Shown: positions 14,678 through 60,425 of the stretch, piece by piece | Layout: each line of letters starts with the position of its first letter | Numbering within the stretch: position 1 is the stretch's first letter | Assembly: GCA_029564595.1 (NCBI GenBank) | Contig: JAKQPS010000120.1 | Span: forward strand, 16,424 to 80,423 | Source of the DNA: a bacterium | Lineage (GTDB): Bacteria > UBP15 > UBA6099 | Direction of reading: 5' to 3' | Length of the DNA stretch: 64,000 nucleotides | Translations under genes and position numbers: made by a program | Notes under the pieces: generated by a model | The model's input: only the letters and a program-made list of their open reading frames with translations | What the model was told of the DNA's origin: nothing | Databases searched by the model: none

Positions 14678-15541
14678 TCATTGGTAGTCATGAAAATATT
14701 GATGCATTCTTTCCCTAATACTTATGCATTGCTGACACAAACCATCCGCTTGTTTTCCATCAACTTCAACTATGGCTGCTCCTGATAAAAGTATTAATGT
14801 CATCAAATCGAGCGTGTTCTTTATCGCACGGATATGCATTCTTGGAATGGGGTCTATATTCACCAGTCGAACATCTCCGCTTTCATAGATAAACAAATCA
14901 TCCGGCCCTCTTTTGCCATGTGTGATCATGCAGAAATCACGATACGATTTTTTATATTCATTTCTGAAGTGGCCAGAATTGTGCTTGGCATCGATTCTAT
15001 CGCATTCTTGTTGATAATTTAATTGATTCCCGAGCGCTTTTACTCTTTCTTTGCTGCTGGAAGTTAAATCTGCAGATTCAATTTCTCTTTCAAGTCCAGA
15101 CTTCATTTCTCCTAGTTCGTTCAGGTAGTCAGCATAATCTTTAGAGTAATATTCGTAGATTTTTTTGTGTTCATTTATCTCATTTAGTCGAAAACCAAAT
15201 GCCGCTTCTATTGGCTCATCTTTTAATATTAGAATTCGTATCCAACACTCCCATAATGTTCGAATTATTATGTATGCGGAATCAGGATATCCTGACAAAG
15301 ATATTTTTAACGCAGCAACACAATGTCTGAAAGACCTTGCTAGCACAGGAACAAGAACTTCGTCATGAATAATGCTTTTATTCGGATACTCGATTTCTGT
15401 TTTTATTATCCCAAATAGAATCTTTTCGCATTCTTCTAAAAGTTCCAAAACACCCTTAATCTGTATGATGTTCTCTTCGTGCTTGTCATTCATTGCTTTA
15501 TTAAAACGTAACCAACCCACATGTTCGTCAAGAATTTCCAT
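14678..15541 (-). CDS. Hypothetical protein in AT-rich island; possible HEPN-like Rx6H motif
   Basis: Start chosen at ATG 15541 (MEILDEH, AAGGG upstream) rather than the GTG at 15637. Strongly AT-rich codon usage unlike neighbours. RDFCMITH near C-terminus fits R-x(4-6)-H. No family recognised. Confidence 0.5.
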   Translation of the reverse strand: MEILDEHVGWLRFNKAMNDKHEENIIQIKGVLELLEECEKILFGIIKTEIEYPNKSIIHDEVLVPVLARSFRHCVAALKISLSGYPDSAYIIIRTLWECWIRILILKDEPIEAAFGFRLNEINEHKKIYEYYSKDYADYLNELGEMKSGLEREIESADLTSSSKERVKALGNQLNYQQECDRIDAKHNSGHFRNEYKKSYRDFCMITHGKRGPDDLFIYESGDVRLVNIDPIPRMHIRAIKNTLDLMTLILLSGAAIVEVDGKQADGLCQQCISIRERMHQYFHDYQ

Positions 15542-15828
15542 GTCTGAACCCTTTTTATTCAAACATTTACACATAATCAGTTTTCTGCATTTCGTCAGAA
15601 CCATATAATTCTTTCTTTCTATAACCCTCATTGCCACGCGAACACGATTCTTATTATAGCGCCGACAAATCTAATAGTAAGCTTTGCCTAATTACTCGCC
15701 CGTTAAGATTATGTGAAAAATGGCGCTGTAAACGGAGGCGGTTTCATGTTATGATTCCACGAAAGCACAACCGTCGGCGCCGGGGTCTTTTGGCAACCGG
15801 GACGCGGCGGACATCGCGGAGGCGAACC

Positions 15829-21709: not shown

Positions 21710-21809
21710 CCCCAAGCCGGAACACTGAATTTCAACAGCGCCTCCGGCTTCCAAAGAGAAACTCGCTTAGCGCGCTCATCGCGGCGCGCTTCATCGCAAC
21801 GCGCTCATC

Positions 21810-21898
21810 GTTGCCAAGGTCTCCTTGGCAACGGGGGAGACGATGGCAATGAAAGCGGAGCTTTCGGTTTGTGCGATACCAAGGCGACCTTGGTATCG
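21810..21898. repeat. Twin hairpins sharing CCAAGG-N3-CCTTGG cores
   Basis: GTTGCCAAGG-TCT-CCTTGGCAAC (21810-21832) and CGATACCAAGG-CGA-CCTTGGTATCG (21874-21898) read directly in convergent intergenic region. Confidence 0.6.
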
Positions 21899-22101
21899 AT
21901 GTATAAAACCCGAATCCGCCTTTAGGATTTGAGAGCGAATCGCCTCCGCGCTTCCCCTCCCGACGACCCATACAAAATCATTTATGAATAAGATTCCACT
22001 GAAAAACCCTTATCCAACATCTTTTCACATGAGCGCGGCGGAGCGAAGGCGCGAACGCGCCCGCTTCGCCGCGCTCATTGAAACGTTTCAAAAGGGATTT
22101 T

Positions 22102-22131
22102 AAGGGAAAACTTTTTCAAAAGTTTTCCCTT
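22102..22131 (-). terminator. 13-bp perfect hairpin AAGGGAAAACTTT-TTCA-AAAGTTTTCCCTT, probable terminator of the oxidoreductase operon; member of a palindromic element family
   Basis: Immediately 3' of the stop at 22144; T-rich tract follows on the minus strand; core resembles GGGGAAA..TTTTTGCAAAAA..TTTCCCC elements near 26050 and 28850. Confidence 0.55.
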
Positions 22132-22143
22132 AACTCCCCGCCT

Positions 22144-23148
22144 TTAGAGCGGCAGCGAGACAGGCGCGACGCGGCGGGCGGATTCGTAGGCGGCGAGAGC
22201 GATTTCGAGAGCTTTGAGGCCGTCGATAGCGGGCACGGGAGCCGGGCCGCCGGCGAGGACCGCGCGGACGAAGTCGTCGATAAGCAACGCGTCCATGTTG
22301 TCGCCCCATCCCTTCCAGACCGCCATCCCCGCCCTGTCGTCGCAACAGAGAGCGTTCTGCGCGAACGCGTCAAGCTCGATCGCGCCAGCGTCTCCAAAGA
22401 TGTTTATCGTCACGTCGCCCCATGTCGGAAACGATTTCGGGCGCGACCAACTCGTGTCAATGGTCGCGAAAAAGCCCCCTTCGAACTTCACGGACAGCAA
22501 GCCCGCGTCGTCCAGCCCCAAACCCGAATGCAGGAGAGAGTTTCCGACTTCCGCGAACACCTCGACGGCGTCGGCGGCAAGAATCCAGCGGAGGACGTCC
22601 GCCACGTGGACGGTGTGGTCGATAACCGCTCCGCCGCCGGACTGCGCGGCGTCGAGGAACCAGCCGGGGGGCATGCGTCCATGGTTCGTGCAGGAGGCGG
22701 CTATCGGGCGGCCTATCTCCCCGGCCATGATTTTTTCCCTCAACCTCGCCACTGGCGGGGAATACCTAACAGGAAACGCGATGGAGAGAATCCGCCCGGC
22801 GCGCTCGAAAGCCGACATCATCGCGCGCGCGTCGGCGAGCGTGTGCGCGATAGGTTTTTCGCAGAGCGCGTGGACTCCGGCGGCGGCGCACGCCTCGGCG
22901 TCCCGGCGGTGCGCCGCGTTTTCAGAGCATATCACCGCGAAGTCAGGTTTCAGCCGGTCGAGCAGCTCCGGCAGATTGTCGTCGTAAGCCGCGCCCAGCT
23001 TTTCCGCCGCCGCGCTCCCTCGTTGCGCATCGTCATCGTACACGCCGCAGACGGAGACGTCTTCCCGCCTCGCCAGACAGTTCGCGTAACTATTGGCGTG
23101 CGGGTGAGCGAAACTTGCCATGACCGCTTTAAGTTTCAATGACGACAA
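22144..23148 (-). CDS. Gfo/Idh/MocA family oxidoreductase
   Basis: 334 aa; N-terminal Rossmann region and the EKP motif (HALCEKPIAHTLADARAM) characteristic of the family. Confidence 0.8.
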   Translation of the reverse strand: MSSLKLKAVMASFAHPHANSYANCLARREDVSVCGVYDDDAQRGSAAAEKLGAAYDDNLPELLDRLKPDFAVICSENAAHRRDAEACAAAGVHALCEKPIAHTLADARAMMSAFERAGRILSIAFPVRYSPPVARLREKIMAGEIGRPIAASCTNHGRMPPGWFLDAAQSGGGAVIDHTVHVADVLRWILAADAVEVFAEVGNSLLHSGLGLDDAGLLSVKFEGGFFATIDTSWSRPKSFPTWGDVTINIFGDAGAIELDAFAQNALCCDDRAGMAVWKGWGDNMDALLIDDFVRAVLAGGPAPVPAIDGLKALEIALAAYESARRVAPVSLPL

Positions 23149-24097
23149 CCTTTCCTTCCCTCGCGGAGCGCGCTATCGCGTCTGCGGCGGCCACCGCGAG
23201 CGCCGCTTCGTCCGCGTTTATCAACGGTTCCGCCCCGTTTTCCACGCAGTCCAAGAAATGTTCGAGTTGAAGAGCCATCGGAGATTTCGTTGTCGGGTTT
23301 TCGAGTCGCGAGCAGCCGTCGTAAAGAGAAGTCTTTAGAGCGGGTTTGGACGCGCTGTCGATGTGGAGCAAGCCCCGGTCTCCCGCAAGCTCGAACTCGT
23401 ATCTGAAACCGATGTTAGCGGCCCAGCACGCCTCGAAGTGGGCCATAGCCCCGGATTTAAATCTGAGCGTCGCCAGAGCGAAATCGAGCCCCGATGCCGG
23501 GTCGCATGCCCGCCGCGCGAACGCCCTTTCGGGCGCTCCCAGCGCCAGCAGCGCAAAATCTATGTCGTGAATCATCAGGTCGAGTATCACGCCGCCGCAG
23601 AGCGCGTCGTCGCAGTACCACGGGCGCGAGTCTGGGGGCCGATTGGTCAGCCGGCGCGCGCGCGCCACTCCCGGCGATCCGACATCCCCGTTCCTGTAAC
23701 TGTTCAGCAATGTCCGGTAGTCCGGAAAAAACCGTAGGATGTGGCCGACGAGCAGCAACCGTCCCCTTGAGGCCGCCAGCGCGGCCAGCGCCCGCGCTTC
23801 CGCGGGGTCGGCGCACAGCGGTTTCTCGCAAAACACGTGCGCCCCGGCCTCCAGAGACGCCCTGACCGCAGGCGCGTGCAGGTGCGTCGGCAGGCACACG
23901 TCCACCACGTCCGGCCTAGCGCGCTCAAGCATCTCTTCGATGGAAGCGAACGCCTTCATGCCCGCCGCTTCCGCCTCCGCGCGCCTCGCAGGGTCGGTGT
24001 CCGCCGCGAACGACGGACGCGAGCCTCCCGCAGCCGCGTATGCGTCGCGCCTGACCCTTGCCATGAATCCGTATCCGGCGAAACCTATCGTCGCCAT
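23129..24097 (-). CDS. Gfo/Idh/MocA family oxidoreductase (second paralogue)
   Basis: Start at ATG 24097 (MATIGFAGYGFMARV, GGAGGG upstream); motif HVFCEKPLCADPAEARAL; ORF-track upstream extension to 24508 is Arg-rich and implausible. Confidence 0.75.
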   Translation of the reverse strand: MATIGFAGYGFMARVRRDAYAAAGGSRPSFAADTDPARRAEAEAAGMKAFASIEEMLERARPDVVDVCLPTHLHAPAVRASLEAGAHVFCEKPLCADPAEARALAALAASRGRLLLVGHILRFFPDYRTLLNSYRNGDVGSPGVARARRLTNRPPDSRPWYCDDALCGGVILDLMIHDIDFALLALGAPERAFARRACDPASGLDFALATLRFKSGAMAHFEACWAANIGFRYEFELAGDRGLLHIDSASKPALKTSLYDGCSRLENPTTKSPMALQLEHFLDCVENGAEPLINADEAALAVAAADAIARSAREGKVVVIET

Positions 24098-24264
24098 CGC
24101 GCCCTCCGGGAGCCTTGCCGCCTCACGCCGAAATGATATGTCCGCCGCGCCGCCCTCGTCAATCTCCTGTTCAAAGCTCCGCAAAAACTGTATAATCGAC
24201 GGAACACGGCGCGGCGCCGCAAGACAGCGCGACACGCGAGGCCCGCGCGATTGAGGAGACAATA

Positions 24265-24879
24265 ATGAGCCTGACGGAAAAGTTTTACGCTGAGATAGAA
24301 ACCCTGAAAAACCATTTCGACGGCATAGACGGCAAACGGGAATGGGCGTATGTGACGGCAAGGGAGTTGCGCCGCGACTCCGTGCAGGCGGTGCGCCACA
24401 TCCACCGCGGCAGGTTCGACGAAGCCCGCGAGCTGATAGCCAAAGGCCGCGACGCCGCGGTAGAACTCGCCGCCCTCGAAAGCAGGTTCGGTTTCGCTGA
24501 AGAGGCACAACAGGAATACGCCGAAGCCGCCCTCACTCTGGCTTTCATCTCAGGACAGGAACCGCCCTCGCGCGAGGACATCGGGGCCACCGAACGCGGC
24601 TACCTCCTCGGCATGGCGGATGTCATCGGAGAGCTTCGCCGCCACATTCTCGACCTGCTCCGCAACGACCGCATCGACGAATCAATCGCCTTCATGGACC
24701 TGATGGACGACCTGCAGGGCATCCTGATGAAGTTCGACCACACGGACGCCGTGCTGCCCATGCGCCGCAAACAAGACCAGTTCCGCCCAATAATCGAACG
24801 CACGCGCGGCGACCTCACCAACATCATCTGTCAGAAAAAACTCGAACAGCGGCTCCGCGAAAGCGCTCAGCCGGAATAA
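24265..24879 (+). CDS. Translin-family-like protein (tentative)
   Basis: 204 aa all-helical; GMADVIGELRRHILDLL resembles the translin/TRAX GEL-R motif. Assignment from memory of the family. Confidence 0.5.
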   Translation: MSLTEKFYAEIETLKNHFDGIDGKREWAYVTARELRRDSVQAVRHIHRGRFDEARELIAKGRDAAVELAALESRFGFAEEAQQEYAEAALTLAFISGQEPPSREDIGATERGYLLGMADVIGELRRHILDLLRNDRIDESIAFMDLMDDLQGILMKFDHTDAVLPMRRKQDQFRPIIERTRGDLTNIICQKKLEQRLRESAQPE

Positions 24880-24939
24880 CCTCCGCATCCCGGCACAATG
24901 GATAAATCTTTTAATACTTCATATGCGCGCATGAAAAAA

Positions 24940-24975
24940 ACCGCCCCGATGTGAGTCGGGGCGGTTTTGGTTTTC
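24940..24975. terminator. Bidirectional Rho-independent terminator (A-run, ACCGCCCCGA stem, TCGGGGCGGT, T-run)
   Basis: Read directly between convergent genes. Confidence 0.7.
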
Positions 24976-25043
24976 TTAAATCCGAAATCAGCGAGTCTTC
25001 CGGGTTCTGAACGCGCTCCGCGGTTGCTCGCGCGACAGCAGGC

Positions 25044-25856
25044 TCAGGTCTTGAGGCCGCCGCTCACGTTCAGCGTCACTCCGGTCAGGTAGTCGGAGCC
25101 GGAGGTTGACAGGAAATAGACCACGCGGGCGATGTCGATGGGCGCGCCCATGCGGATTCCCATGAAGTTCATGTACATCAGGGACTGCTGGCGGTCCTGA
25201 TCGGGGATTCCGATGTCGGAGCCTTCGGGTTTTTTCTGGGTGAGGCGTGTGTCAATCCAGCCGGGAGCCACGCAGTTGCACTGCACGTTAAACATAAGGC
25301 CTTCGATGGCGACCGTCTTGGTGAGACCGACGATGCCGGATTTTGCCGCCGAGTAGTTGGCCTGCCCCTTGTTGCCGAACAGCCCCGCGACCGAGGAGGT
25401 GTTGATGATTTTGCGGGATTTTTTCTCTTTGCCGTCGGCTTTCGCCAGATCGCGCATTGCCGCCATCGCCGCCTGACAACAGAAGAACGTGCCCTTCATG
25501 TTCACGTCCACTATGAAGTCCCACATATCTTCGGACATCTTGTGGAGCATGCCGTCGCGGGTGATGCCCGCGATGTTCGCCATAACGTCCAGCCCGCCGA
25601 ACTTGTCGAGGGCGGTCTTGACCGTCTTCTGCACGTCGTCTTTAGAGGCGACGTTGCCCGCGATGGCGACGCCGTCGCTGCCCGCCTTCTTGACCAGTTC
25701 GAGCGTTTCGTTCGCCGGCTCGATGTCAAGGTCGTTGACTATGACCTTCGCGCCGCCTTCGGCGAGGGCTACCGCCACCGTCTGCCCTATACCGCGCCCG
25801 GCCCCGGTGACCACCGCTACTTTTCCATCTAATTTGAAATCATCAAGTATGGCCAT
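25044..25856 (-). CDS. SDR family oxidoreductase (3-oxoacyl-ACP reductase-like)
   Basis: 270 aa; TGAGRGIG dinucleotide motif, NIAG, and catalytic YSAAK. Confidence 0.9.
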   Translation of the reverse strand: MAILDDFKLDGKVAVVTGAGRGIGQTVAVALAEGGAKVIVNDLDIEPANETLELVKKAGSDGVAIAGNVASKDDVQKTVKTALDKFGGLDVMANIAGITRDGMLHKMSEDMWDFIVDVNMKGTFFCCQAAMAAMRDLAKADGKEKKSRKIINTSSVAGLFGNKGQANYSAAKSGIVGLTKTVAIEGLMFNVQCNCVAPGWIDTRLTQKKPEGSDIGIPDQDRQQSLMYMNFMGIRMGAPIDIARVVYFLSTSGSDYLTGVTLNVSGGLKT

Positions 25857-25974
25857 TCTTTTCCCCCTTAAACAAGCGTTATTTTAATTTGATGTTGCGA
25901 TATGAATGTTATCAGAACGGCGGCGCGGTTGTAAAGGAAAAAATTCACAAACCGGGACGCGGCGCGGACGCGAA

Positions 25975-26095
25975 TGTTCAGAAGCCGATTTTGTGTTGAA
26001 CGCAGTTCAAAAAAATCGGCGCTCCAAGAGTTTTTTTGGGAAGGGGCGCGGGGAAACCGGTTTTTGCAAAAAACGGTTGCCCCGCAAACTCATAG
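25975..26095 (-). repeat. About 120-bp repeat element, copy A (inverted relative to copy B), containing hairpin GCGGGGAAACC...GGTTGCCCCGC with TTTTTGCAAAAAA loop
   Basis: Reverse complement aligns with 28815-28935 at roughly 85 percent identity by eye; explains shared peptide strings in ORFs 25978..26694(-) and 28718..28900(+). Confidence 0.7.
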
Positions 26096-26145
26096 AAAAA
26101 AACATTGAATAGGCGGTATAATGTTGCGCGGGAGCGTGGAAGACG

Positions 26146-28683
26146 ATGGAAACAATGAAGAACAGGGCGGCTGGCGTTGCCGCCGCGATTATATTGTCGC
26201 TGTTTGTCAGTTCGGGCGCCGGCGCGGCCCCGGTGGTAAGGAAAGACAACCGGCTGTTCGCTATGGGCGCGCAGCTTGCCGTGATTTACAACATGGAGAC
26301 CGGGACGTTTGACATCGCGCGGACGAACGGCGAGGCCGTCGCGCGGGGCGCTCGCGCGGAGGTCGTCGTCACGGCGGGCGGCAAGGAATCCACTCTCTCC
26401 ACTCGCGGGGCCGCCAAACTCGGCTGGTTCTTCGAGGACATCGAAGACGCGCACGGCAAAGGAGCCTCCGTCAGCGTCACAGCCACCGGCTCCGGGTCCG
26501 ACCCTGACGTCGTTCACACTTTCCGCGTTTACGACAACCAGCCGTTCATATTGATGAGCGTCGCGGCGCAGAACGTGTCGGACAAACCCATCGGGGTCAG
26601 AAGGCTGTCGCCGATTGTGGTGGACGGAAGCGGCGAATCGGGAGTGTTCCTCGGACTTGACCCGGCGGACGTGGTGGCCCTTGAGAACGGACACAGGCTG
26701 GAGTTTGATTTCTGGGTGAGAAGGACGCGGGCCGCCGACGGGTCTGACAGCAACTGGAGCGTCGCGCTGTACGACGAGAAATCAGGACGCGCTCTGGTCG
26801 GCGGGTTCCTGTCGCAGCGCGCGGCTTTCGGCTCGGTGTCCACCGGCGGCGGCGCGGTCGAGCCTGCTTTGGACGCGCGCACCGGCAGGCGCGGACTGGG
26901 CCTGTTCCACGCCCGCTCCTCGTTCTCCCCCGCCCGCAGAGTCGGCCCGTACTCCGCGCTCGAGTCCGACGCCTTTTTTATCATGGGCGCTTGGGACGCC
27001 CCTCTCGGCGCGCTGGACGTTTTCGCGCGCGCTTCAGCCGTGGAAAACGGCGTCCCCGCTTCACTCCTCCGCCCCGTGCCGACTTTCTGGGACACTTGGT
27101 ACTCAAAATATTCAACAGACATAAATGAAAAGGTCATTCTGGATAACCTCGCCGCCGCCTCCGAAAAGCTAGCCCCGTTCGGTCTCAACGCGTTCCACAT
27201 CGACGGCGGATGGGAAAGAAAAAGAGGCGACTGGGAGCCGAATGAAAAATTCCCCGGAGGGATGAAGGCGCTGGCGGACGCGATCCGCGCGCGCGGGCTG
27301 ACTCCCTCGATATGGATCGCTCCTTTTTCGGCTGCCGCCGATTCCCCCGTCTGCCGCGACAACCCCGGCTGGTTCCTCGACCCGGACGTCATCGGCTCAG
27401 CCATCATACCGTCCAACGAGCGCGCGCTCGACATCTCCAACCCGGACGCCCTCGCTTGGATGAGCGGGACGATTTCCCGCTTGGTCCATGAATGGGGCTT
27501 CGGGATAATTAAAGTCGACTTCACCTACTATTCCCTTCTGGGAAGGAGCTACGCGGCGAAGGGCAGGACGCGCGCGGAGATATTCAGGGAAGCGTTTCGC
27601 GCCATCCGCGACGCCGCCGGGCCTGACGTTTACATACTCGCCGTCGGCGTGCCCGTCGGCATCCACGCAGGTCTGGTGGACGGCATGAGAACCGGGCTGG
27701 ACACCGCCCCGCGCATCGGAGAGGAAAAAGGTTACGCCGCGCAGGGGTTCAAACCCGCTTTCTCCTCTATGATCCGGCGGCAGTTCCTCAACAACGTCCT
27801 CTGGCACAATGACCCGGACGTCATCTACACCGGGTCGGACGAAACAGCGAAAAGGTGGGGAGAAGCCCCGCTGCCGAAGGACGCCCTGATAGCGTGGGCG
27901 AGCGCCGTCGCGCTCTCCGGCCAGATGCTTGAAATCGCCGACCCGCCCGCCGACATGACTCCCGACGCTCTGGCAATCGCCCGCGCCGTTCTACCCGTCT
28001 ATTCCAAAGGAGCGCGTCCTCTCGACCTTTTTACTAAAGACTACCCCGAAATCCTCTCCCTCCGGCTCGACGCCCCGGACTCCCCGCGCCACATCGTCGG
28101 CATTTTCAACTGGGGCGAAAACGATGACAACGGCGCGACAATATCAGCCGAAACCCGCCTCGTTCACCTGCCGTTCTCCGCTCTCGGCCTCTCTCCCAAC
28201 GCCCAGTGCCATGTTTTTGATTTCTGGAACGGCAAATATCTCGGAAATCCGAAATTCGGCCACGCCGTCCGGCTGGCCCCCCACTCCGTTCAGGTGGCGG
28301 CGGTCGTCGAGACTCTAGACAGGCCTCAGTTCATCGCCTCCAACCGCCACGTAACGATGGGCGCAACAGACATCCGCTCCGTCTCTTGGGACGAAGCCGC
28401 GCTCGAACTGCGCGGCTCTCAGGACTCCGTCGCCGGATTCGATTACGCCCTGACATTCCACACGCCTGAGCCTTACCAGTTTGACAGCGCCGAAGTCGCC
28501 GGCTCCCCGGCGGCCGCGGAGCTTTCGCCTGAAGGCAGAGTGATAACGGTGAAGTTTTCCCCCGCCGAATCCGGAAACACGAATTGGATTCTAAAATTTA
28601 AAAAAACCGGCCCTCCCGCCCCGCCTGCCCCTGACCCCCAGAACAATCAGAAAAACCAGAAAGACAAAAACAAAAAGAAATAA
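26146..28683 (+). CDS. Secreted alpha-galactosidase-like glycoside hydrolase (GH36/melibiase-like, tentative)
   Basis: 845 aa; signal peptide; TIM-barrel-like core with HIDGGWE and IIKVDF motifs resembling alpha-galactosidase catalytic regions; Pro/Lys-rich tail. Confidence 0.65.
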   Translation: METMKNRAAGVAAAIILSLFVSSGAGAAPVVRKDNRLFAMGAQLAVIYNMETGTFDIARTNGEAVARGARAEVVVTAGGKESTLSTRGAAKLGWFFEDIEDAHGKGASVSVTATGSGSDPDVVHTFRVYDNQPFILMSVAAQNVSDKPIGVRRLSPIVVDGSGESGVFLGLDPADVVALENGHRLEFDFWVRRTRAADGSDSNWSVALYDEKSGRALVGGFLSQRAAFGSVSTGGGAVEPALDARTGRRGLGLFHARSSFSPARRVGPYSALESDAFFIMGAWDAPLGALDVFARASAVENGVPASLLRPVPTFWDTWYSKYSTDINEKVILDNLAAASEKLAPFGLNAFHIDGGWERKRGDWEPNEKFPGGMKALADAIRARGLTPSIWIAPFSAAADSPVCRDNPGWFLDPDVIGSAIIPSNERALDISNPDALAWMSGTISRLVHEWGFGIIKVDFTYYSLLGRSYAAKGRTRAEIFREAFRAIRDAAGPDVYILAVGVPVGIHAGLVDGMRTGLDTAPRIGEEKGYAAQGFKPAFSSMIRRQFLNNVLWHNDPDVIYTGSDETAKRWGEAPLPKDALIAWASAVALSGQMLEIADPPADMTPDALAIARAVLPVYSKGARPLDLFTKDYPEILSLRLDAPDSPRHIVGIFNWGENDDNGATISAETRLVHLPFSALGLSPNAQCHVFDFWNGKYLGNPKFGHAVRLAPHSVQVAAVVETLDRPQFIASNRHVTMGATDIRSVSWDEAALELRGSQDSVAGFDYALTFHTPEPYQFDSAEVAGSPAAAELSPEGRVITVKFSPAESGNTNWILKFKKTGPPAPPAPDPQNNQKNQKDKNKKK

Positions 28684-28720
28684 CCCCGCCGCACAAAAAA
28701 TGTGAGAAGTTTGGGAAATG

Positions 28721-28775
28721 GGGTTTGGGGAAAGAACCCTTTTCAAAGGGTTTTTCCCCAATCGCCGAAGGCGAA
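28721..28775. repeat. Palindromic element copy C (GGGGAAAGAACCCTTTT-CAAA-GGGTTTTTCCCC)
   Basis: Read directly; same family as hairpin cores at 26046-26085, 28826-28864 and 22102-22131. Confidence 0.55.
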
Positions 28776-28814
28776 AACCTCTTATATCAGCTTTTTCGGG
28801 TTTAAGGATTCTTC

Positions 28815-28935
28815 GTATGTGTGCGGGGAAACCATTTTTTGCAAAAATAGGTTTCCCCGCGCCCCTTCCAAAAAAACTCCCGGACGCCGCTTTTCGCTGA
28901 ACTCCGTTCAACGCAAAAACCGGCTTCTTTCCATA
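28815..28935 (+). repeat. About 120-bp repeat element, copy B, with hairpin GCGGGGAAACC-ATTTTTTGCAAAAATA-GGTTTCCCCGC
   Basis: Direct alignment to reverse complement of 25975-26095; together they flank the glycoside hydrolase gene in inverted orientation. Confidence 0.7.
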
Positions 28936-29190
28936 GTGAATTCCCTACTCCCGTGTTGGCAAAAAAGACGGGTTACTTAAAACAAAACATTCAATTTGCC
29001 AAATAGGGAGCATTATGATAACATCGAAGCAAAGCATTACAAAAATCGGCAATATCTAAAAAAACAATGTTCATAAGGCCTTTTATGGATTTTGAGACTT
29101 GAAGTAACAGAATATAAGGAGCATCGTATAACATCTCGCAAGTGAGTAACGTTGATGATAACTCGTAATTGTTAGTATTATCGGAGGGCT

Positions 29191-30027
29191 ATGAAAACCA
29201 AGATAATAACATTGTCGTCTGATGTTGTTGAAAAGGCTGATTTGCTTGAATATGAGAAAATGATTTTAGATAACAAAAACATAAGTGAGCACAATGCATC
29301 CAAATTCTTTGCCAAGTTTCCAAAGTTTCTTTCAATAGGCGGCTATAAAGAATTTGCAAGAGAAATAGTATTATCTACACCTCAAAATGAACAGATGTAT
29401 CGTGTGGATTTTTGTAGGAAGCGGTACGGCACATTGTACTGGGACATAGTTGAACTTAAAAGACCCGGGATTCAGGCATTGGTAAAGAAAGGAAAACATT
29501 GGCATTTTTCTGATGCGGTGCAGAAAGGGATAGATCAATCATATGATTACAGAAATTTGATGCATGATAAAACAAATATGGAATTAACAGAGAATAAAAC
29601 GGGAATTAGAATTTACAGACCCAAGATATTGCTAATTGCTGGCAGAAAAGATAACGATATCGGGGAAGATGAATTGATTGATTTGATAGATAAATACAAC
29701 CATTTTGAGTTTTTGACTTATGACGATCTTTTTAATAGTCATACAGAACACTATAAATCAACACTGATTGTTGTCCCCGTGTTCGAAGGCGATGACATAC
29801 CGATAGAAGATTCTGGGGTTCAACTTAAAAGACATATTCAAGAAATGCTAGTTGTGTTGACAAATAAGGAAAGACGTGTTCTCGAATTAAGGTTTGGATT
29901 GATTGACGGAATACCGCGTGATTGCGAAACGATAGCAGAATCAATGAATGAAAATCCAAGCAATATAAGAAAGATTGAATCAAAAGCTTTACGCAAGCTT
30001 AGGTTTCCTCCAACTACCAGACTTTAA
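29191..30027 (+). CDS. Two-domain protein: N-terminal Shedu/DUF4263-like PD-(D/E)xK nuclease-like domain fused to C-terminal sigma-70 region-4 HTH
   Basis: 278 aa, AT-rich codons, GGAGG before ATG. N-terminal FFAKFPKFLSIG...RVDFCRKRYGTLYWDIVELKRPG...QKGIDQSYDY fits D...E-x-K...Q nuclease signature; C-terminal LTNKERRVLELRFGLIDGIPRDCETIAESMNENPSNIRKIESKALRKLR is a near-textbook sigma-70 region 4.2. Confidence 0.6.
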   Translation: MKTKIITLSSDVVEKADLLEYEKMILDNKNISEHNASKFFAKFPKFLSIGGYKEFAREIVLSTPQNEQMYRVDFCRKRYGTLYWDIVELKRPGIQALVKKGKHWHFSDAVQKGIDQSYDYRNLMHDKTNMELTENKTGIRIYRPKILLIAGRKDNDIGEDELIDLIDKYNHFEFLTYDDLFNSHTEHYKSTLIVVPVFEGDDIPIEDSGVQLKRHIQEMLVVLTNKERRVLELRFGLIDGIPRDCETIAESMNENPSNIRKIESKALRKLRFPPTTRL

Positions 30028-30077
30028 GAAGTTCTTGGAAAGAAACAATTAGAGTGAATCCGAGATTGTTGTCTGTA

Positions 30078-31610
30078 TTATCGCCGGGCAGGCGATTTCT
30101 TGTCGTAAAATAGTTGCACTACTTTTTCCATTCGGGAAATTTCATTATCCGAAAGAGCCTCGAAATGGCTTGCTCGTTTCCGCCCTGAGAGTCTGCCATT
30201 GTTTTGCAGACAAAAGCGGATGAAAATGTCGATTTGCCTGTCGGGCATATCCACAATCTCCTGTATAGCTTTCTTGGTTTCATCGTAATTTGCTAGGAAT
30301 AACAATTCACCCGCCAGTTCAGTATCAATAGTCTTCTCAATGAACAGAAACAGCGCTTCTGCTTGCGGAGTCATATCAATATAGCGGTACCATTTAACCG
30401 TATCATTATGGACGGTCATACGGCCATCTTCATCAAGAGAGTATTCCACTAATGGCATTAGACGCTTTGAAAACGATTCCAAAGAAGCATCATAGTCGGC
30501 GGGATTCTTCAACATGGATGCCGACACCGGGAACATGATGCCTTCGGGTGTAAAACCGCGGCGAGCAAGAATGTTATGGATCAGAAACCGGTGAATTCTA
30601 CCATTGCCATCCTCGAACGGATGCAGAAAAACAAATCCATATGAAACGACGGCGGCGTGAATCACGGCGGGAACATTGCCCTCGTCCATGAACTTGAAGG
30701 AAATCTCTAAGCCTTCCATAAGGTCAGGCAGATTTTCAGGTTTTGGACATGCGAAGTGTATCTTTTCATTTTGCCAAGCGACCGACTCCCCCACATAATT
30801 CTGTGTGCGCCGGTAGTCGGAATCACGGAACCGCGCATCGACAATGCGATTCTGAAGCTCTATCAAACTCTTTTTATCATAAAAATCTTTTTGCTCCGCC
30901 AGTTGAAGCAGAGAAACAAATCTTTCCGTCTTATTTGAAGTGGGATTGATGTGTTCTATCTCGAAGGAAGATTTAGTTTCTTTGGCGTAGAGATAACCAA
31001 GAGCGCGCTTTAGCATTTCCGGAGGATAGGCTGATACAACTTGGCGGCATCTATCGGGAAGGTTTGTTTTTTCGAAGTCGCGAAGGATATCTGTGCGACG
31101 AACCGAAGGACAGAACTGGTGATTTCCCAATAAATTATCATTGATTCGTTGGCGACGGACTATGCGGGCTGGAGAAACCGTATAGTATTCTGATGATTCT
31201 AGCAGATCGACATAGTTGCCCCTCTTCAAGTCGGCTAACGGGAGTTTTTTGCCTGTGAGAAACTCGTATAGGAACCATAGTCGCCTTACGTACTTGCCAC
31301 TAGGTTTGGACTGCGCATATTCGAGAAAATCTTTTTCTTCTATTTCTTGAAATAAACTGGCTAGTATCGCAAGGTTCGTGCCGTCATACTTAAGCGCGAA
31401 TTCAAGATGATCTCCCAGCATATCCCCGGGCCAATACTTAAGCGGAAAAACTTCCTCAATCACGCCGCCGGAAGAATCAACTTGATGTATTCCGGAGTTA
31501 ATGACAAAGGAAATATGCCAATTTGGGATGACATCAAGGTCGTACCGCTCGACAAGCGCCGCATATCCTGCGGGTCTGCGGGTCGATTCGTCTTTGTCTT
31601 TTTCAGACAT
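30078..31610 (-). CDS. Fic family protein (AMPylation/phosphocholination-type Fic/Doc enzyme)
   Basis: Start at ATG 31610 (MSEKDKDES) behind GGAGG; canonical Fic motif HPFEDGNGRIHR; SFEIEH segment about 100 aa upstream could be an inhibitory-helix-like motif. ORF-track start 31664 lacks RBS. Confidence 0.85.
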   Translation of the reverse strand: MSEKDKDESTRRPAGYAALVERYDLDVIPNWHISFVINSGIHQVDSSGGVIEEVFPLKYWPGDMLGDHLEFALKYDGTNLAILASLFQEIEEKDFLEYAQSKPSGKYVRRLWFLYEFLTGKKLPLADLKRGNYVDLLESSEYYTVSPARIVRRQRINDNLLGNHQFCPSVRRTDILRDFEKTNLPDRCRQVVSAYPPEMLKRALGYLYAKETKSSFEIEHINPTSNKTERFVSLLQLAEQKDFYDKKSLIELQNRIVDARFRDSDYRRTQNYVGESVAWQNEKIHFACPKPENLPDLMEGLEISFKFMDEGNVPAVIHAAVVSYGFVFLHPFEDGNGRIHRFLIHNILARRGFTPEGIMFPVSASMLKNPADYDASLESFSKRLMPLVEYSLDEDGRMTVHNDTVKWYRYIDMTPQAEALFLFIEKTIDTELAGELLFLANYDETKKAIQEIVDMPDRQIDIFIRFCLQNNGRLSGRKRASHFEALSDNEISRMEKVVQLFYDKKSPARR

Positions 31611-31619
31611 GACTTCCTC

Positions 31620-31811
31620 CAGAAAAACGCTTACAACACGAGAATTATAGTTATATTTTAGCATGTGGCAAGAAAAACAGTTACGGCGGCAAATGCTGTA
31701 AGCTTCTTAGTCTGACAAGAAAAACGCTTACAAGGCAAGAAAAACGCTTACATAACAGCCTGCGACAAGAAAAACGCTTACAACGCGGCCTGTGGCAAGA
31801 AAAACAGTTAT
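31620..31811 (+). repeat. Array of six direct repeats CAAGAAAAAC(G/A)(C/G)TTAC (iteron-like) upstream of the Fic gene
   Basis: Copies at 31620, 31669, 31717, 31736, 31766, 31796 read directly; first copy degenerate; spacings 19-48 bp. Confidence 0.8.
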
Positions 31812-53489: not shown

Positions 53490-55193
53490 ATGATTCTGCT
53501 TAATCCGAAAAAATATGATCCGAAAAGGCTCGACCCGGCATCCGCCGAACTGATGAAGAAAACCATCGCGTTCTTCGAGGCAAAGGGCAAAAGAAAACTG
53601 AAACAGGACGACCACGAGAGAGTGTGGTACGCGGACTTTCTGGATTTCGTGAAGCAGGAAAAAGTGTTTTCGAAACTGCTTACGCCGTCCGGTTATTCCG
53701 ACGGCGACCCTGACACCCGGTGGGACAACAACCGGAACTGCGACTTCAACGAGATAACCGCCTTCTACGCCCTGCACTACTGGTACACGTGGCAGGTGAG
53801 CATTCTCGGCCTCGGCCCGATATGGATGGGCAAAAACGAAGAGGTGAAAAAGAAGACGGCGGAGCTGTTGCGCGAGGGCGGCATCTTCGCGTTCGGACTG
53901 TCCGAAAAAGAGCACGGCGCGGATATCTATTCCACGGATATGTCGCTCGCCCCGCAGGCCGACGGCACATACATTGCCAATGGGAGAAAGTATTACATCG
54001 GCAACGGAAACAAGGCGGCGCTGGTGTCCACTCTCGGCAAGATGAAGGACAGCGGCGACTTCGTGTTCTTCGTCGTCGGATCGACTCACGGCAAGTACGA
54101 ATGCGTGCGCAATCTGGTGAACACTCAGTCTTACGTCGCCGAGTACGCTCTGAACGACTACCCGATATATGAATACGACATCCTCACGAAGGGACAGGAG
54201 GCGTGGGACTCCGCGCTGAACACCATAAACGTTGGGAAATACAATCTCGGATGGGCGTCGATCGGCATATGCACGCACTCGATTTACGAGGCGATAGACC
54301 ACGCGTCGAACAGGGTGCTGTACGGCAAACACGTGACGGACTTCCCGCACATCAGGCAGCTAATGACTGACGCGTACTGCCGATTGGTCGCGATGAAACT
54401 GTTCGCGCTGCGCGCGTCTGACTACATGAGGGCGGCGGGGCCGGACGACAGGCGCTATCTGCTGTACAACCCGATGGTGAAGATGAAAGTGACCACGCAG
54501 GGCGAGGAAGTCATCAACCTGTTGTGGGACGTGATAGCGGCGCGCGGGTTCGAGAAGGAAACGTATTTCGAGATGGCGGCGCGAGACATCCGCGCGCTCC
54601 CCAAACTCGAAGGAACTGTTCATGTGAACATGGCCCTCATCATCAAATTCATGCGCAACTATTTCTTCATGCCCGGCAAATTCCCCGAACTAGGCGTGAA
54701 AACAGACCCGGCGAACGACGACTTCCTGTTCAATCAGGGACCGACGCGCGGACTGGGCAAAATCCAGTTCCACGACTACAACATCGCGTACAACAGCGTT
54801 GACTTGCCGAACGTCAACCTCTTCAAAGAGCAAATAAACGTCCTCAAGGAATTCCTCATGACCGCCACCCCCACAGAGGAGCAGGCCAAGGACATCGATT
54901 TCCTGCTCGTGCTCGGCGAACTATTCACGCTTGTGGCATACGGGCAGCTTATCATCGAGAACTCCGCGATAATGAATGTCGAGGACGCGCTGCTCGACCA
55001 GATATTCGACTTCTTCGTCCGCGACTTCTCCAAATTCGCGCTGCAACTTTACTCGAAGACGGGCAGCACGGAGAAGCAGATGGGCCTGTGCCTGAAGATG
55101 ATCCGCAAACCTGTCCCGAACCCGGAAAGATTCAACAAGATATGGAACGAGCACGTCTTCGCCCTCAAAGGCGCTTACACCATGAGCGACTGA
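53490..55193 (+). CDS. Acyl-CoA dehydrogenase family protein
   Basis: 567 aa; overall three-domain ACAD-like layout (tentative family-level call from pattern, not a motif match). Confidence 0.65.
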   Translation: MILLNPKKYDPKRLDPASAELMKKTIAFFEAKGKRKLKQDDHERVWYADFLDFVKQEKVFSKLLTPSGYSDGDPDTRWDNNRNCDFNEITAFYALHYWYTWQVSILGLGPIWMGKNEEVKKKTAELLREGGIFAFGLSEKEHGADIYSTDMSLAPQADGTYIANGRKYYIGNGNKAALVSTLGKMKDSGDFVFFVVGSTHGKYECVRNLVNTQSYVAEYALNDYPIYEYDILTKGQEAWDSALNTINVGKYNLGWASIGICTHSIYEAIDHASNRVLYGKHVTDFPHIRQLMTDAYCRLVAMKLFALRASDYMRAAGPDDRRYLLYNPMVKMKVTTQGEEVINLLWDVIAARGFEKETYFEMAARDIRALPKLEGTVHVNMALIIKFMRNYFFMPGKFPELGVKTDPANDDFLFNQGPTRGLGKIQFHDYNIAYNSVDLPNVNLFKEQINVLKEFLMTATPTEEQAKDIDFLLVLGELFTLVAYGQLIIENSAIMNVEDALLDQIFDFFVRDFSKFALQLYSKTGSTEKQMGLCLKMIRKPVPNPERFNKIWNEHVFALKGAYTMSD

Positions 55194-55238
55194 GTAGGCA
55201 AACTAATGTTGACTATGCGTTGATTCTATTGTTATTTT

Positions 55239-55280
55239 GCGGGGAAGCATTTTTATGAAAAGGCTTCCCCGCTTTTATTT
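55239..55280. terminator. Bidirectional terminator hairpin GCGGGGAAGC / GCTTCCCCGC followed by T-rich tract
   Basis: Read directly between convergent genes. Confidence 0.65.
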
Positions 55281-55457
55281 AGAAGCTTCTATTATCGACT
55301 ATTCAGTAAAGTTTCGTTCTTCGCAATATCCGCGCATATCCATACTTGCAATATTCACACGCTTTTATTGGAGCCAATGTTTATTGCTCCGGCCAACCCC
55401 GCACAACCGAACCTATCTCTCTTCAATTATTTCTCTATTTCGAAAACAGCTCGTTTT

Positions 55458-57365
55458 TCAAAGTTTTTTTGATTCCTTTTTCGCCAGCCGCAAAGACATC
55501 ATAATGACAACAATGACGCCTCCTATTAGCGCAATCCAAATAATAATTTCTTTTCCCAAAGGTCGGTCGTCCTTTTCATCGCATGCGTCTCCTATTCCAT
55601 CTTTGTCTTTATCAGGTTGCACGGATTTGCCATATTGCTGTCGCTTGGGATTGCTGACTAATGGACAATTGTCAAGCGCATTTAGAACGCCGTCATTATC
55701 CCAGTCTTCGCATGCGTCTCCAACGCCGTCATTGTTCCTGTCCTTCTGATCATTGTTAGGAATGTCCGGGCAATTATCATTGACATCCAACACGCCATCA
55801 TTGTCGCTATCCTCGCAAATATCGCCGATGTCGTTAAGATTAACATCGCGCTGATCAGGATTTTTCATGCTAGGACAGTTGTCGCAAGCATCTCCGACAC
55901 CGTCATTGTCGGAATCGCGCTGATCAGGATTCTTTTTCTTCACGCAATTATCCTTGAAGTTCTGCGCATCATCATTGTCGTCGTCATCGCAAGCGTCTCC
56001 CACGCCATCGTTGTTTTTGTCTTCTTGTTGAGGATTATAACCATGAATACAGTTGTCGCATGCGTCGCCAATGCCGTCCCGGTCGGTGTCCCGCTGATCT
56101 GCATTCGGCTTGTTTCGGCAGTTGTCAACCGCTGTCGGAATGCCATCATTGTCCATGTCTTCGCAAGCGTCGCCGACGCCGTTGCGGTCTTTGTCCTGCT
56201 GTCTCGGATTCCTAACAGATGGACAATTATCCTTGCTGTTTATGATGCCGTCAAAATCATGATCGTCGCAAACATCGCCAATTCCATTTGAATCTGAGTC
56301 CATTTGGTCAGGATTTGCCATATCCAGACAGTTGTCACAAGCATCGCCAACCCCATCCCGGTCAACGTCCTCTTGGCTCGCATTAGGAACATCCGGACAG
56401 TTATCACATGCGTCTCCTACGCCGTCGCGATCAGAATCCTTCTGATCTGGATTGCTATTAAGAGGACAATTATCATATTTTGTTATCTTATCTCGATCCG
56501 GGTCTTCATTATATTCTGGATTCGGCTTCTCTCTTCCGAGCTTCACCTGCGGCATGTTCTTCCAGACGCGTAAACCGCGCGTATTAGATTTCGTATTTGA
56601 GCTTTTAATGTTCCCGTAATATATCTGATACTTTTTTCCCTCTTTTATATCGAACACAGCGCCAATTTCGGACGGCCCGAATATTCGCATTTCTCTTATT
56701 GCGATACCGCCGCCATGTTCAAATGCGAAACGGATAAATCGCTTTATAACAGGCGGATATGGGATTTCAAGATTCAAAGGCTCGTCCGCATCGTATTTCA
56801 CATTCTGCAAATACGTCCATTGGACGCCGTCATTGCTCCCGCTGATAATCAGTTTCTTAAATGTGAATGCATCGTCATGCAAATGTATCTCAGCAAACCC
56901 TGTGAGCGTAGGCTGGCCGAAATCAAAAGTCAGGGTCGTATGCCTAGGGTCTTTTTCAGGATCGCTCTGGTAGTAACTGCCCTCTTTGCCGGAAACATCT
57001 CCGTCTGTTAAATTGCGCGACCCGTACGAGGCGCCGCGGAATGGGGACCGCTCTGAAGTCGCTTTTATTCCTGATGCTCTTGAGGCGACATCCATTCTGT
57101 CATTCTTTACCAGCATATACGGTATTTCCTTTCCTGATTCGGCGATTCGCAAATCCCGCTGGTCCGGCAGCATTTTCTGAAGCGCTTCTTCGTCGAGGCG
57201 CAACAACGCCTCGCCTTGCGCGCTTCCCGTCGACACGTCTCGCATATATGGATACGCGGAAAACGTTTCAGCCTCGCCCGCCTTTGCGGTAATGGCAATG
57301 ATCGACACAAGCGCAAAGATATACATACTTAACCTTGTCACTGCCTTCTCTATATCAGTCGTCAT
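55458..57365 (-). CDS. Thrombospondin type-3 repeat protein with N-terminal discoidin-like region and C-terminal TM anchor
   Basis: Start at ATG 57365 (GAGGAG upstream) overlapping the upstream stop (ATGA); more than ten tandem Ca-binding-type repeats (DxDxDGxGDxCDNCP); C-terminal hydrophobic [17 protein letters not shown]; lower GC than flanks. Confidence 0.75.
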
Positions 57366-59749: not shown

Positions 59750-60425
59750 AGAAGCAACCCCTTATTGATTCACAAGTTTTCAATGTGTCTTTGCCATATG
59801 ACACACTGATTTCTGACAGTTGGTTGTGTTGTTGTCAATTATACAAGCGATAGCATTTATTTGAAAGGGGTTATAACCTTACTAATTTCAATATTATTTA
59901 AATGGCAACCTTGAGTTCGAAATAGGAACGCGCTCATCGCATTCTTTGCATCAACTATTTTGTCGGGCTTACTAAATGTCCACCATCAATAATGCCGCAT
60001 ATTTCAAGTTGAATTCCGGCTTAGCAATACGTCCCTCTATTGTAACGCGTAAATTCTTCTCGTAAAAGAATCATCGCCGCATCGCGAAGCTTGTGGGTTA
60101 AAAAACTAATCACAAACGAAATATACGCGATTCACAATCTAATACAGCCTGAAGATGTGTCAGTTTTGGGGATTCTTGCGGCAAGCCTTCTTCGAGTCTT
60201 CTTTTTTTATGTCGGGTTTGACTCTTGAGACGGGGTTGCGCGTCCAGAATTTCCGGATGGTTTTCCACGCGGGTTTTATTTTCTTCTTTTTAGCCATTTG
60301 GCGTTGTCCATAACGTCGTTCTTTGCAAATCGTCTTGATATTTATATGAATTCTAACGATGGATTAGCGTTTATTCGCGATGAACGATGAAGGCCGCGAA
60401 TTTTAATTAAGCGTCGCTATCCCCG

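Follow-up and report, generated by a model that had tools for sequence, protein, structure and literature searches.

A dispersed mosaic repeat with a core resembling intrastrand-triplex repeats on both sides of a glycoside hydrolase gene

The two inverted copies and their dispersed family

For the analysis of the locus around a glycoside hydrolase (GH) gene, we used 64,000 nucleotides of contig JAKQPS010000120.1 from an uncultured bacterium; this whole stretch is called the window. The gene is bracketed by two inverted segments of ~110 nt, the left and the right copy of the repeat described here (Table 1). The same locus is present in ENA, JGI and Logan assemblies. Its GH protein and DnaK are shared with metagenome-assembled genomes (MAGs) including 'bacterium ADurb.Bin236' from an uncultured anaerobic-digester lineage, and the nearest named DnaK homologues (~70% identity) belong to Clostridia. 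The first-pass annotation of the window, made from its letters, had named the bracketed gene an alpha-galactosidase-like gene of ~2.5 kb, which agrees with a Melibiase match in Pfam. The GC content of the gene is typical of the surrounding chromosome. Its left neighbour is a divergently transcribed short-chain dehydrogenase (SDR) gene, and on the other side GC is 0.35-0.47 from position 29 kb to 32 kb of the window, starting just past the right copy, so the low-GC island annotated there was confirmed. Pfam scans of ~45 window ORFs revealed ordinary chromosomal genes, including the dnaK operon and genes for a histidine kinase, an MFS transporter, MgsA and an acyl-CoA dehydrogenase; neither an integrase nor a transposase, of Y1 type or other, was found among these ORFs.

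Table 1. Coordinates of the repeat copies, their parts and further features of the window (candidate strands and the promoter are predictions)
Feature	Position	Strand	Basis
Left copy, long-form repeat	25980..26089	+ ('forward')	blastn, alignment; nhmmer 123.5 bits; core covariance model 77 bits
Hairpin A, left copy, GCCGATTTT..TTGAAC-GCA-GTTCAA..AAAATCGGC	25984..26020	+	RNAfold; kept in ~22 long copies
T7-GGG-AA-GGGG tract, left copy, candidate third (reverse-Hoogsteen) strand	26031..26046	+	mirrors hairpin C 5' arm; run-length covariation
Hairpin C, left copy, GCGGGGAAACCGG-TTTTTGCAAAAA-ACGGTTGCCCCGC	26048..26085	+	repeat search, shuffles, RNAfold; compensatory changes
Predicted sigma-70-like promoter, TAGAAA-18-TATAAT	26093..26122	+	consensus scan, 10/12 matches; pattern match only
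GH36-like (Melibiase) gene, 845 aa, GC 0.62	26146..28683	+	Pfam 2.3e-14; homologues at 92%, 84%, 50-55% identity
Right copy, long-form repeat	28819..28928	-	blastn, alignment; nhmmer 124.8 bits; core covariance model 78.9 bits
Hairpin C, right copy	28823..28860	.	repeat search, shuffles, RNAfold
GCCCCTTCC-A7 tail, complement of the mirror tract, candidate Hoogsteen strand in class III layout on the GH-sense strand	28861..28876	+	run-length covariation
Hairpin A of right copy (28886-28924), then TTCTTTCC	28886..28932	+	RNAfold; T-rich tail
Element 3 module, core-like hairpin 28721-28775	28703..28805	+	blastn to L160, L171, L143, L130, L126, L150, L168; core covariance model 29.2 bits
Low-GC, strain-variable defence island	29191..31664	.	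Pfam; PADLOC; content differs in L160
Element 2 copy, hairpin 22100-22133	21933..22136	+	blastn; core covariance model 23.7 bits
Hairpin with the same stem base (GCGGGGAAGC..GCTTCCCCGC), then TTTTATTT	55227..55276	+	terminator survey; core covariance model 30.8 bits

The two segments, annotated as 25975-26095 and 28815-28935, are reverse complements of each other at ~85% identity, as had been noted. blastn returned an inverted match of 112 nt (25980-26089 against 28928-28819; 84.8% identity, E 2.7e-27), the MAFFT alignment has 85% column identity, and a repeat search found a 58-nt core common to both copies at 90% identity. The hairpin pattern GGGGAAACCNNTTTTTGCAAAAANNGGTTNCCCC matched the window at the two copy sites only and had 0 matches in 100 shuffles. 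For both segments, the predicted folding energies are -42 to -49 kcal/mol, with z of -3.5 to -5.4 against shuffled controls. The stable hairpin proposed for each copy is real, while its supposed TTTTTGCAAAAA loop is mostly paired as a T-run:A-run apical stem. A second hairpin (hairpin A) is present in each copy and is separated from the long hairpin C by a T7 run and the purine tract GG(G)AAGGGGC. The general plan of a copy is hairpin A, T-run with purine tract, and hairpin C. The left copy is situated in the divergent SDR-GH intergenic region. Three nucleotides separate its end from the predicted -35 hexamer of the GH gene, and the predicted promoter as a whole falls between this copy and the start codon of GH. 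Along the GH transcript, the right copy reads hairpin C, C-rich tail, A7, hairpin A and U-rich tail; hairpin A together with the following TTCTTTCC is terminator-like in this sense.

For identification of further copies, genome contigs were scanned with the pattern AAGGGGCGCGGGGAAN{16,24}CCCCGC. The matches were dominated by >90 Streptomyces genomes, and at least ~10 relevant loci were found among the matches listed. These included full-length copies on another ADurb.Bin236 contig (L064, 87%; loci outside the window are cited by L numbers) and in L073 (93.5%), as well as ~55-nt partial copies in several MAGs labelled Clostridiales or Oscillospiraceae. A stricter pattern matched 38 metagenome stretches; the scan of viral contigs gave 0 matches. 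The combined scans yielded 43 unique core sequences from many metagenomes and MAGs, and the core recurs in other uncultured anaerobes. Among them are ~22 unique long copies of ~110 nt, which occur in ~20 distinct flanking contexts, at unrelated intergenic sites and in both orientations. All long copies examined are intergenic, and the neighbouring genes are functionally unrelated. One MAG has at least four copies on two of its contigs, and some copies are paired, in tandem or inverted. These numbers bear out the earlier suggestion of a dispersed palindromic element family. The boundaries of the long copies are sharp against unrelated flanks (5' A[AG][GA]AGCCG..., 3' ...CCCCGCA). Neither terminal inverted repeats (TIRs) nor target-site duplications (TSDs) were detected in the ~22 long copies, and the outer flanks of the window pair (..GAATGTTC on the left and TTCCATAG.. 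on the right) hold no direct repeat, so the check for TSDs that had been proposed turned out negative.

The two copies of the window are not each other's closest relatives. The trimmed elements share 83% identity, by which the partner takes rank 18 of 21. Each window copy has an orthologue at 96-98% in a related strain (hereafter the 92% strain; L151, L160-L162) and relatives at 92-94% at unrelated loci. This indicates that the two copies belong to different subfamilies and derive from separate events. We regard them, with a probability of about 0.8, as independent copies of a non-coding mosaic repeat of ~110 nt which is scattered in intergenic regions, and this is the explanation favoured overall.

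Several assemblies end inside the hairpins (L002, L004, L163, L164), as expected of multi-copy palindromes. In L014 (positions 1-400) a tandem array of ~178-nt units was observed, with a core hairpin in each unit and the contig start inside a unit. In Streptomyces, AAGGGGCGCGGGGAA..CCCCGC recurs in L005, L012, L049, L055, L070 and >90 other loci, often paired at a distance of 65-240 nt; it is probably an unrelated intergenic repeat of this genus. A DNA uptake sequence was considered on account of the inverted pairs of a conserved 9-mer, and was rejected since single copies of GCGGGGAAA are not over-represented in the window. Likeness to a sigma-54 site, an UP element, a LexA box, a G-quadruplex or a CRISPR repeat was likewise discarded, since either the spacing or motifs are wrong or the short forms have not kept them.

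Mirror symmetry of the core and likeness to known repeats

The tract located 5' of hairpin C is a near mirror of the 5' arm of this hairpin and follows the scheme T(5-8) G(n) A(m) GGGG / CGC / GGGG A(m+1) C(n) T(5-8). Over 33 unique copies, the length of the upstream A-run correlates with that of the purine run in the arm (Spearman 0.94) and the upstream G-run with the C-run of the arm (Spearman 0.79). When reduced to the 15 unique combinations, Spearman is 0.90 (permutation p<=5e-5), and the mean deviation from the rule 'arm = upstream + 1' is 0.12 (p<=5e-5). This rule is not imposed by the search pattern. Variants outside the pattern follow it with compensatory changes: G5/G5 in L155, G6/G6 in L122 and L137, GAAGGGAG-CGC-GAGGGAAAC in L010 and a mirrored AGAAA interruption in L079. 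The mirror design is found in elements 2 and 3 of the window, too. Hairpin C itself carries compensatory changes in 5 of 14 pairs across the 33 copies. To our knowledge, covariation in evolution has seldom given evidence of a third strand.

As checked by hand, neither arm can form Watson-Crick pairs with the upstream tract, save for the 1-5-nt G(n)/C(n) part. The mirror symmetry cannot be read by Watson-Crick pairing; it is precisely what purine-motif triads (G.G-C, A.A-T) call for, with a third strand antiparallel to the purine arm. From the order of third-strand tract, 3-nt spacer, purine arm and pyrimidine arm, we infer an intrastrand-triplex layout of the core. The domains and bases obey the rules for a class I triplex (G.G-C, A.A-T, T.A-T; stems 6-15 nt), with 5-9 allowed consecutive triads (mean 6.3; 6 in both window copies). 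The ITxF rule sets both loops at 1-6 nt. The first loop of the core has 3-5 nt (CGC, TGC, TCC), while the link between purine and pyrimidine arm measures ~18-26 nt and forms an extra 7-10-bp stem with its loop. The complementary strand has a class III layout of purine arm, pyrimidine arm and CCCCUU tail. Tentatively, the ~55-nt core may be a naturally selected fold-back triplex, in which an adjacent third strand reads the purine 5' arm of the hairpin. It would adopt the purine motif (class I) in single-stranded DNA, and the other strand, whether DNA or mRNA, would take the class III layout. Its effect would be either the capping of mRNA 3' ends or, as a programmed fragile site, the seeding of defence-island turnover. 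In favour of this reading, third-strand run lengths covary among subfamilies and among three separate repeat families of uncultured anaerobes. We consider it somewhat doubtful.

Intrastrand-triplex repeats conserved in bacteria were described by Holder et al. (2015), building on Hoyne et al. (2000) (PMC4666352). The main example is BoxC/PIT/TM_ECO with the sequence CCCTCNCCC-N3-6-GGGNGAGGG-N3-GGGNGAGGG; repeats of the TM_ECO type are strictly intergenic, show no strand bias and occur sometimes as inverted pairs (PMC4666352). For TM_ECO, triplex formation was demonstrated in vitro, and more rearrangement was found between E. coli strains (PMC4666352). The core described here is similarly short, highly conserved and intergenic, and it consists of three domains (third, purine and pyrimidine strand) with a 3-nt spacer. 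There is likewise no strict strand bias and no link to gene function, inverted pairs are occasional, and strain rearrangement occurs around the sites. In contrast to TM_ECO, which belongs to class II (pyrimidine, purine and reverse-Hoogsteen strand, in this order), the order of the core is that of class I/III (reverse-Hoogsteen, purine, pyrimidine). The sequences are unrelated (GGAAGGGG-CGC-GGGGAAA in the core against CCCTCNCCC..GGGNGAGGG..GGGNGAGGG), and the core has only 5-9 triads. The triplex was physically shown for TM_ECO, whereas here it is predicted from the sequence. Purine and pyrimidine domains are joined in the core by a 7-10-bp stem of a C(n)T-run and an A-run G(n) instead of a 1-6-nt loop. 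Because of this long extra stem in place of the short second loop, the published finder (loops 1-6 nt) would miss the core. Furthermore, the core is part of a 110-nt mosaic with a second hairpin, and the host is an uncultured bacterium with a DnaK closest to Clostridia. If the core does form a triplex, the bacterial intrastrand-triplex repeats (BoxC/TM_ECO) would be extended beyond Proteobacteria and Cyanobacteria, and triplex repeats would be tied to synteny breakpoints, to hotspots of defence islands and to the assembly breaks by which MAGs are fragmented. Apart from this, the core represents a sequence conserved across many uncultured anaerobes which matches no Rfam family.

For the whole 110-nt element, the closest analogy appears to be the repetitive extragenic palindromes (REP) and their bacterial interspersed mosaic elements (BIME). 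Those of Enterobacteria and Pseudomonas are imperfect palindromes of ~35-40 nt outside genes, with many copies that lie in either orientation. They form mosaics with other conserved motifs, are frequent at gene 3' ends and in the space between convergent genes, and have been proposed to act as terminators or to stabilise mRNA. The repeat of the window resembles them as an extragenic palindrome in both orientations, represented by the 38-nt hairpin C (counts from metagenome contigs), often at gene 3' ends. Its copies often form mosaics with other modules and adjoin element 3, a CCGGGAATTCNTTCCCGG hairpin and further shared flank modules. It differs from REP/BIME by a longer palindrome with an A/T apical stem, by the mirror-symmetric purine tract and by the absence of a GTAG-type 5' tetranucleotide; no GTAG-like tetranucleotide was found at the hairpin foot. 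On this basis, the repeat is described as a REP/BIME-like mosaic whose core resembles intrastrand-triplex repeats.

The repeat was also compared with miniature inverted-repeat transposable elements (MITEs) such as Correia/NEMIS, RUP and bcr1, which near genes can supply terminators or promoters. Like these, it is small (~110 nt, below 200 nt), non-coding, multi-copy (~20 contexts), structured and located near genes. Unlike these, it has neither TIRs nor TSDs, and no cognate insertion sequence (IS) was seen. Since the element lacks transposon-like ends, spread by a trans-acting enzyme encoded elsewhere, or by recombination, would be favoured. Such an enzyme could be a domesticated IS200/IS605-like tyrosine transposase, for which the hairpin and its conserved 5' tract would serve as recognition and guide site, as in REP elements and their RAYT proteins. 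The conserved tract 5' of the hairpin foot, the copies in both orientations, in pairs and in mosaics, and the lack of TIRs and TSDs agree with this idea; single-strand Y1 transposition, known from REP/RAYT and IS608, generates neither TIRs nor TSDs. However, no RAYT/Y1 (PF01797) gene was seen in the 64-kb window or the fetched loci, the GTAG-type tetranucleotide is missing, and a guide sequence predicts no mirror-symmetric covariation of run lengths over 6-9 nt. We regard a REP/RAYT-type element as unlikely.

Position relative to genes and likely action

In the commoner orientation, a co-oriented stop codon precedes hairpin C by 8-55 nt (~17 unique cases). With the opposite orientation, 4 copies have a start codon 13-31 nt downstream of hairpin C, and ~7 have one at 60-135 nt. 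Read in gene sense, hairpin A is followed by at least 5 T within 8 nt in 13 of 21 long copies. At the GH locus, the inverted geometry results from the different sites of the copies: the left one lies in the divergent promoter region, and the right one follows the gene in the opposite orientation. The right copy would most likely act as terminator and as a structure protecting the 3' end of the GH mRNA, because gene-sense hairpin C occurs 8-55 nt past stop codons and is followed by hairpin A and a U-rich tail. The left copy, for which there is no gene to terminate, would be a passenger insertion abutting the -35 region of the GH gene.

Several observations weigh against the reading as a mosaic repeat with this action and with a triplex-like core. 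The orientation counts depend on gene calls by a simple longest-ORF heuristic, and the orientation is not strict, given the 4 and ~7 copies upstream of start codons. Hairpin C lacks a U-tract on either strand and thus is no canonical intrinsic terminator. Three 22-kb stretches of related strains hold no long copy. In L164, which carries an 84%-identical GH gene, the right copy is decaying, counter to strong selection on a function there. With respect to the core, the triplex is predicted from symmetry of the sequence and the run of triads is short (5-9), the long extra stem that takes the place of the second 'loop' exceeds what the published search criteria allow, and in its G(n)/C(n) part the tract is complementary instead of mirror-symmetric.

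The copies might instead be ordinary intrinsic terminators of the lineage, immobile and alike through convergent constraints. About half of them are located just past stop codons as G+C-rich hairpins, hairpin A has its U-rich tail, and the canonical terminator at 55227-55276, which follows the acyl-CoA dehydrogenase gene and lacks the mirror tract, has the same stem base. Convergence would hardly produce 85-98% identity over 110 nt including the non-stem parts, with sharp boundaries against unrelated flanks, and some copies are situated in divergent promoter regions or precede start codons by 13-31 nt. The most conserved part, hairpin C, is without a 3' U-tract and its sequence is kept, not its structure alone, while the other terminators of the window are unrelated to the repeat in sequence. 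This explanation is improbable.

Still less probable is a structured cis-regulatory or small RNA, such as a 5' leader by which sugar-utilisation genes are controlled. It would account for the stable fold with compensatory changes and for the several co-oriented copies just upstream of starts, three of them with no Shine-Dalgarno sequence between hairpin and ATG. Against it, an Rfam search over 25700-29300 at E<=10 gave chance-level matches only (E 2-10, far below the gathering scores), the copies occur in both orientations to genes with unrelated functions and in tandem and inverted pairs, and the left copy lies upstream of the predicted promoter and thereby outside the 5' UTR. The three copies mentioned (L127 1654-1718, L139 2870-2930, L157 2338-2401) have their core hairpins 13-15 nt upstream of the start codons and carry the Shine-Dalgarno-like tract GGAAGGGG at the 5' foot of the hairpin; folding would place this tract near the AUG.

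The hydrolase block in related strains and neighbouring features

The first-pass annotation had proposed a MITE-bounded or composite cassette, in which the inverted elements served as transposon ends and moved the hydrolase gene. This was the weakest of the explanations considered and is already largely refuted. The inverted flanking geometry, the different chromosomal neighbourhood of the GH block in the 92% strain and the strain-variable island abutting the right copy would suit it. A composite transposon has near-identical mobile elements on its flanks, whereas the two copies are 83-85% identical, belong to different subfamilies and have no TIRs or TSDs (none in the ~22 copies), and the ~45 window ORFs scanned include no transposase or integrase. 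Moreover, the GH gene moves with its neighbours: in close strains it is always found together with the SDR and GFO genes.

Orthologous loci were compared, as had been suggested. In the 92% strain, left copy, GH gene and right copy are all kept, and a third long copy, preceded by an element 3 module, follows a membrane-protein gene. In L164, the right copy is present directly after the GH stop codon as a degenerate relic (5' arm GCAGTGAACCC; nhmmer 61 bits), the downstream genes differ from those of the window, and at the expected place of the left copy, the 55 nt that precede the conserved -10 region are unrelated to the element (short contig). GH homologues with 50-55% identity are located in other contexts, and the element is absent there. 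The elements are intergenic whatever the gene content, and the locus is present in relatives without intact copies, which is essentially what had been named in advance as speaking against mobilisation. The GH-only mobilisation does not agree with the relic in L164 and the different sequence at its left-copy position. The hydrolase gene is an ordinary chromosomal gene and not the cargo of a mobile cassette, so a false lead is removed from its annotation.

The unit that differs between strains is larger. Nucleotide homology between the window and the 92% strain is restricted to positions 22010-30079, a block of ~8 kb including the GH gene, which is limited not by the two long copies, but by a breakpoint inside element 2 (~21988-22010) and by the end of the Shedu-like gene. 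This block is found ~105 kb from dnaK in the 92% strain, beside Mu-like prophage genes. In L160 (1-3500 and 16500-21300), phage-like genes flank the GFO-GH block, with Peptidase_M15 on one side and a Mu-type portal and GpA terminase on the other. The site 3' of dnaK-grpE-dnaJ-merR (window 21710-22140; L168 14278-16749; L171 14207-19435) is a hotspot whose content varies from strain to strain. The GFO/SDR/GH block is located there in the window, the 92% strain has AbiLi/AbiLii instead, and a third strain, from a sample that also gave the contig with the 84%-identical GH, encodes a 1622-aa CLIPPER/SpaA-like surface protein at this site. Block limits and hotspot content show that the strains differ by a larger block bounded by other repeats, and not by the GH gene between its elements. 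An inversion between two full element 2 copies was rejected as cause of the rearrangement, as both junctions in the 92% strain share no homology. Defence islands, as well as breaks of synteny between strains, adjoin the repeats described here. Triplex-type non-B DNA at the core, if formed, would make these sites hotspots for rearrangement and for the insertion of islands. In L151 (6618-9122), the GH gene is split into ORFs of 131 aa and 698 aa. Both fragments recur as cluster members P0011 and P0015, and either a frameshift has made the gene a pseudogene or the assembly is wrong here.

The hairpins at 28721-28775 and 22102-22131 had been regarded as related to those of the two copies. They do have the same architecture, with the mirror layouts GGGAAATGGGG-TTT-GGGGAAAGAACCC in element 3 and AAAAGGG-ATTTTAA-GGGAAAAC in element 2, but do not belong to the same family, their covariance scores being weak (Table 1). 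Elements 2 and 3 are two further dispersed repeat families, each with many copies elsewhere. Element 3 is located between the GH stop codon and the right copy in the window; in the 92% strain it is missing at the position after the GH gene and instead lies beside the third long copy. The merR-GFO intergenic region contains two perfect 11-bp hairpins related in sequence (window 21809-21833, CGTTGCCAAGG-TCT-CCTTGGCAACG, and 21874-21898, CGATACCAAGG-CGA-CCTTGGTATCG), which may represent another small repeat.

The defence island next to the right copy encodes one protein with an SduA-like nuclease domain and a sigma-70 region-4 helix-turn-helix (29191-30027, + strand; PADLOC SduA 2.4e-14) and a 528-aa Fic protein (30078-31664, - strand), which matches the PADLOC candidate PDC-S24 with 5.6e-180. 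In the 92% strain, the SduA-like gene is truncated and the Fic gene is absent. A small low-GC insertion is found at 14678-15637, a DUF5677 ORF with GC 0.36 within a region of ~60% GC, which gave no PADLOC hit. A second low-GC stretch (GC 0.43-0.47) at 55000-60000 comprises small ORFs and the gene of a 795-aa DUF2339 membrane protein.

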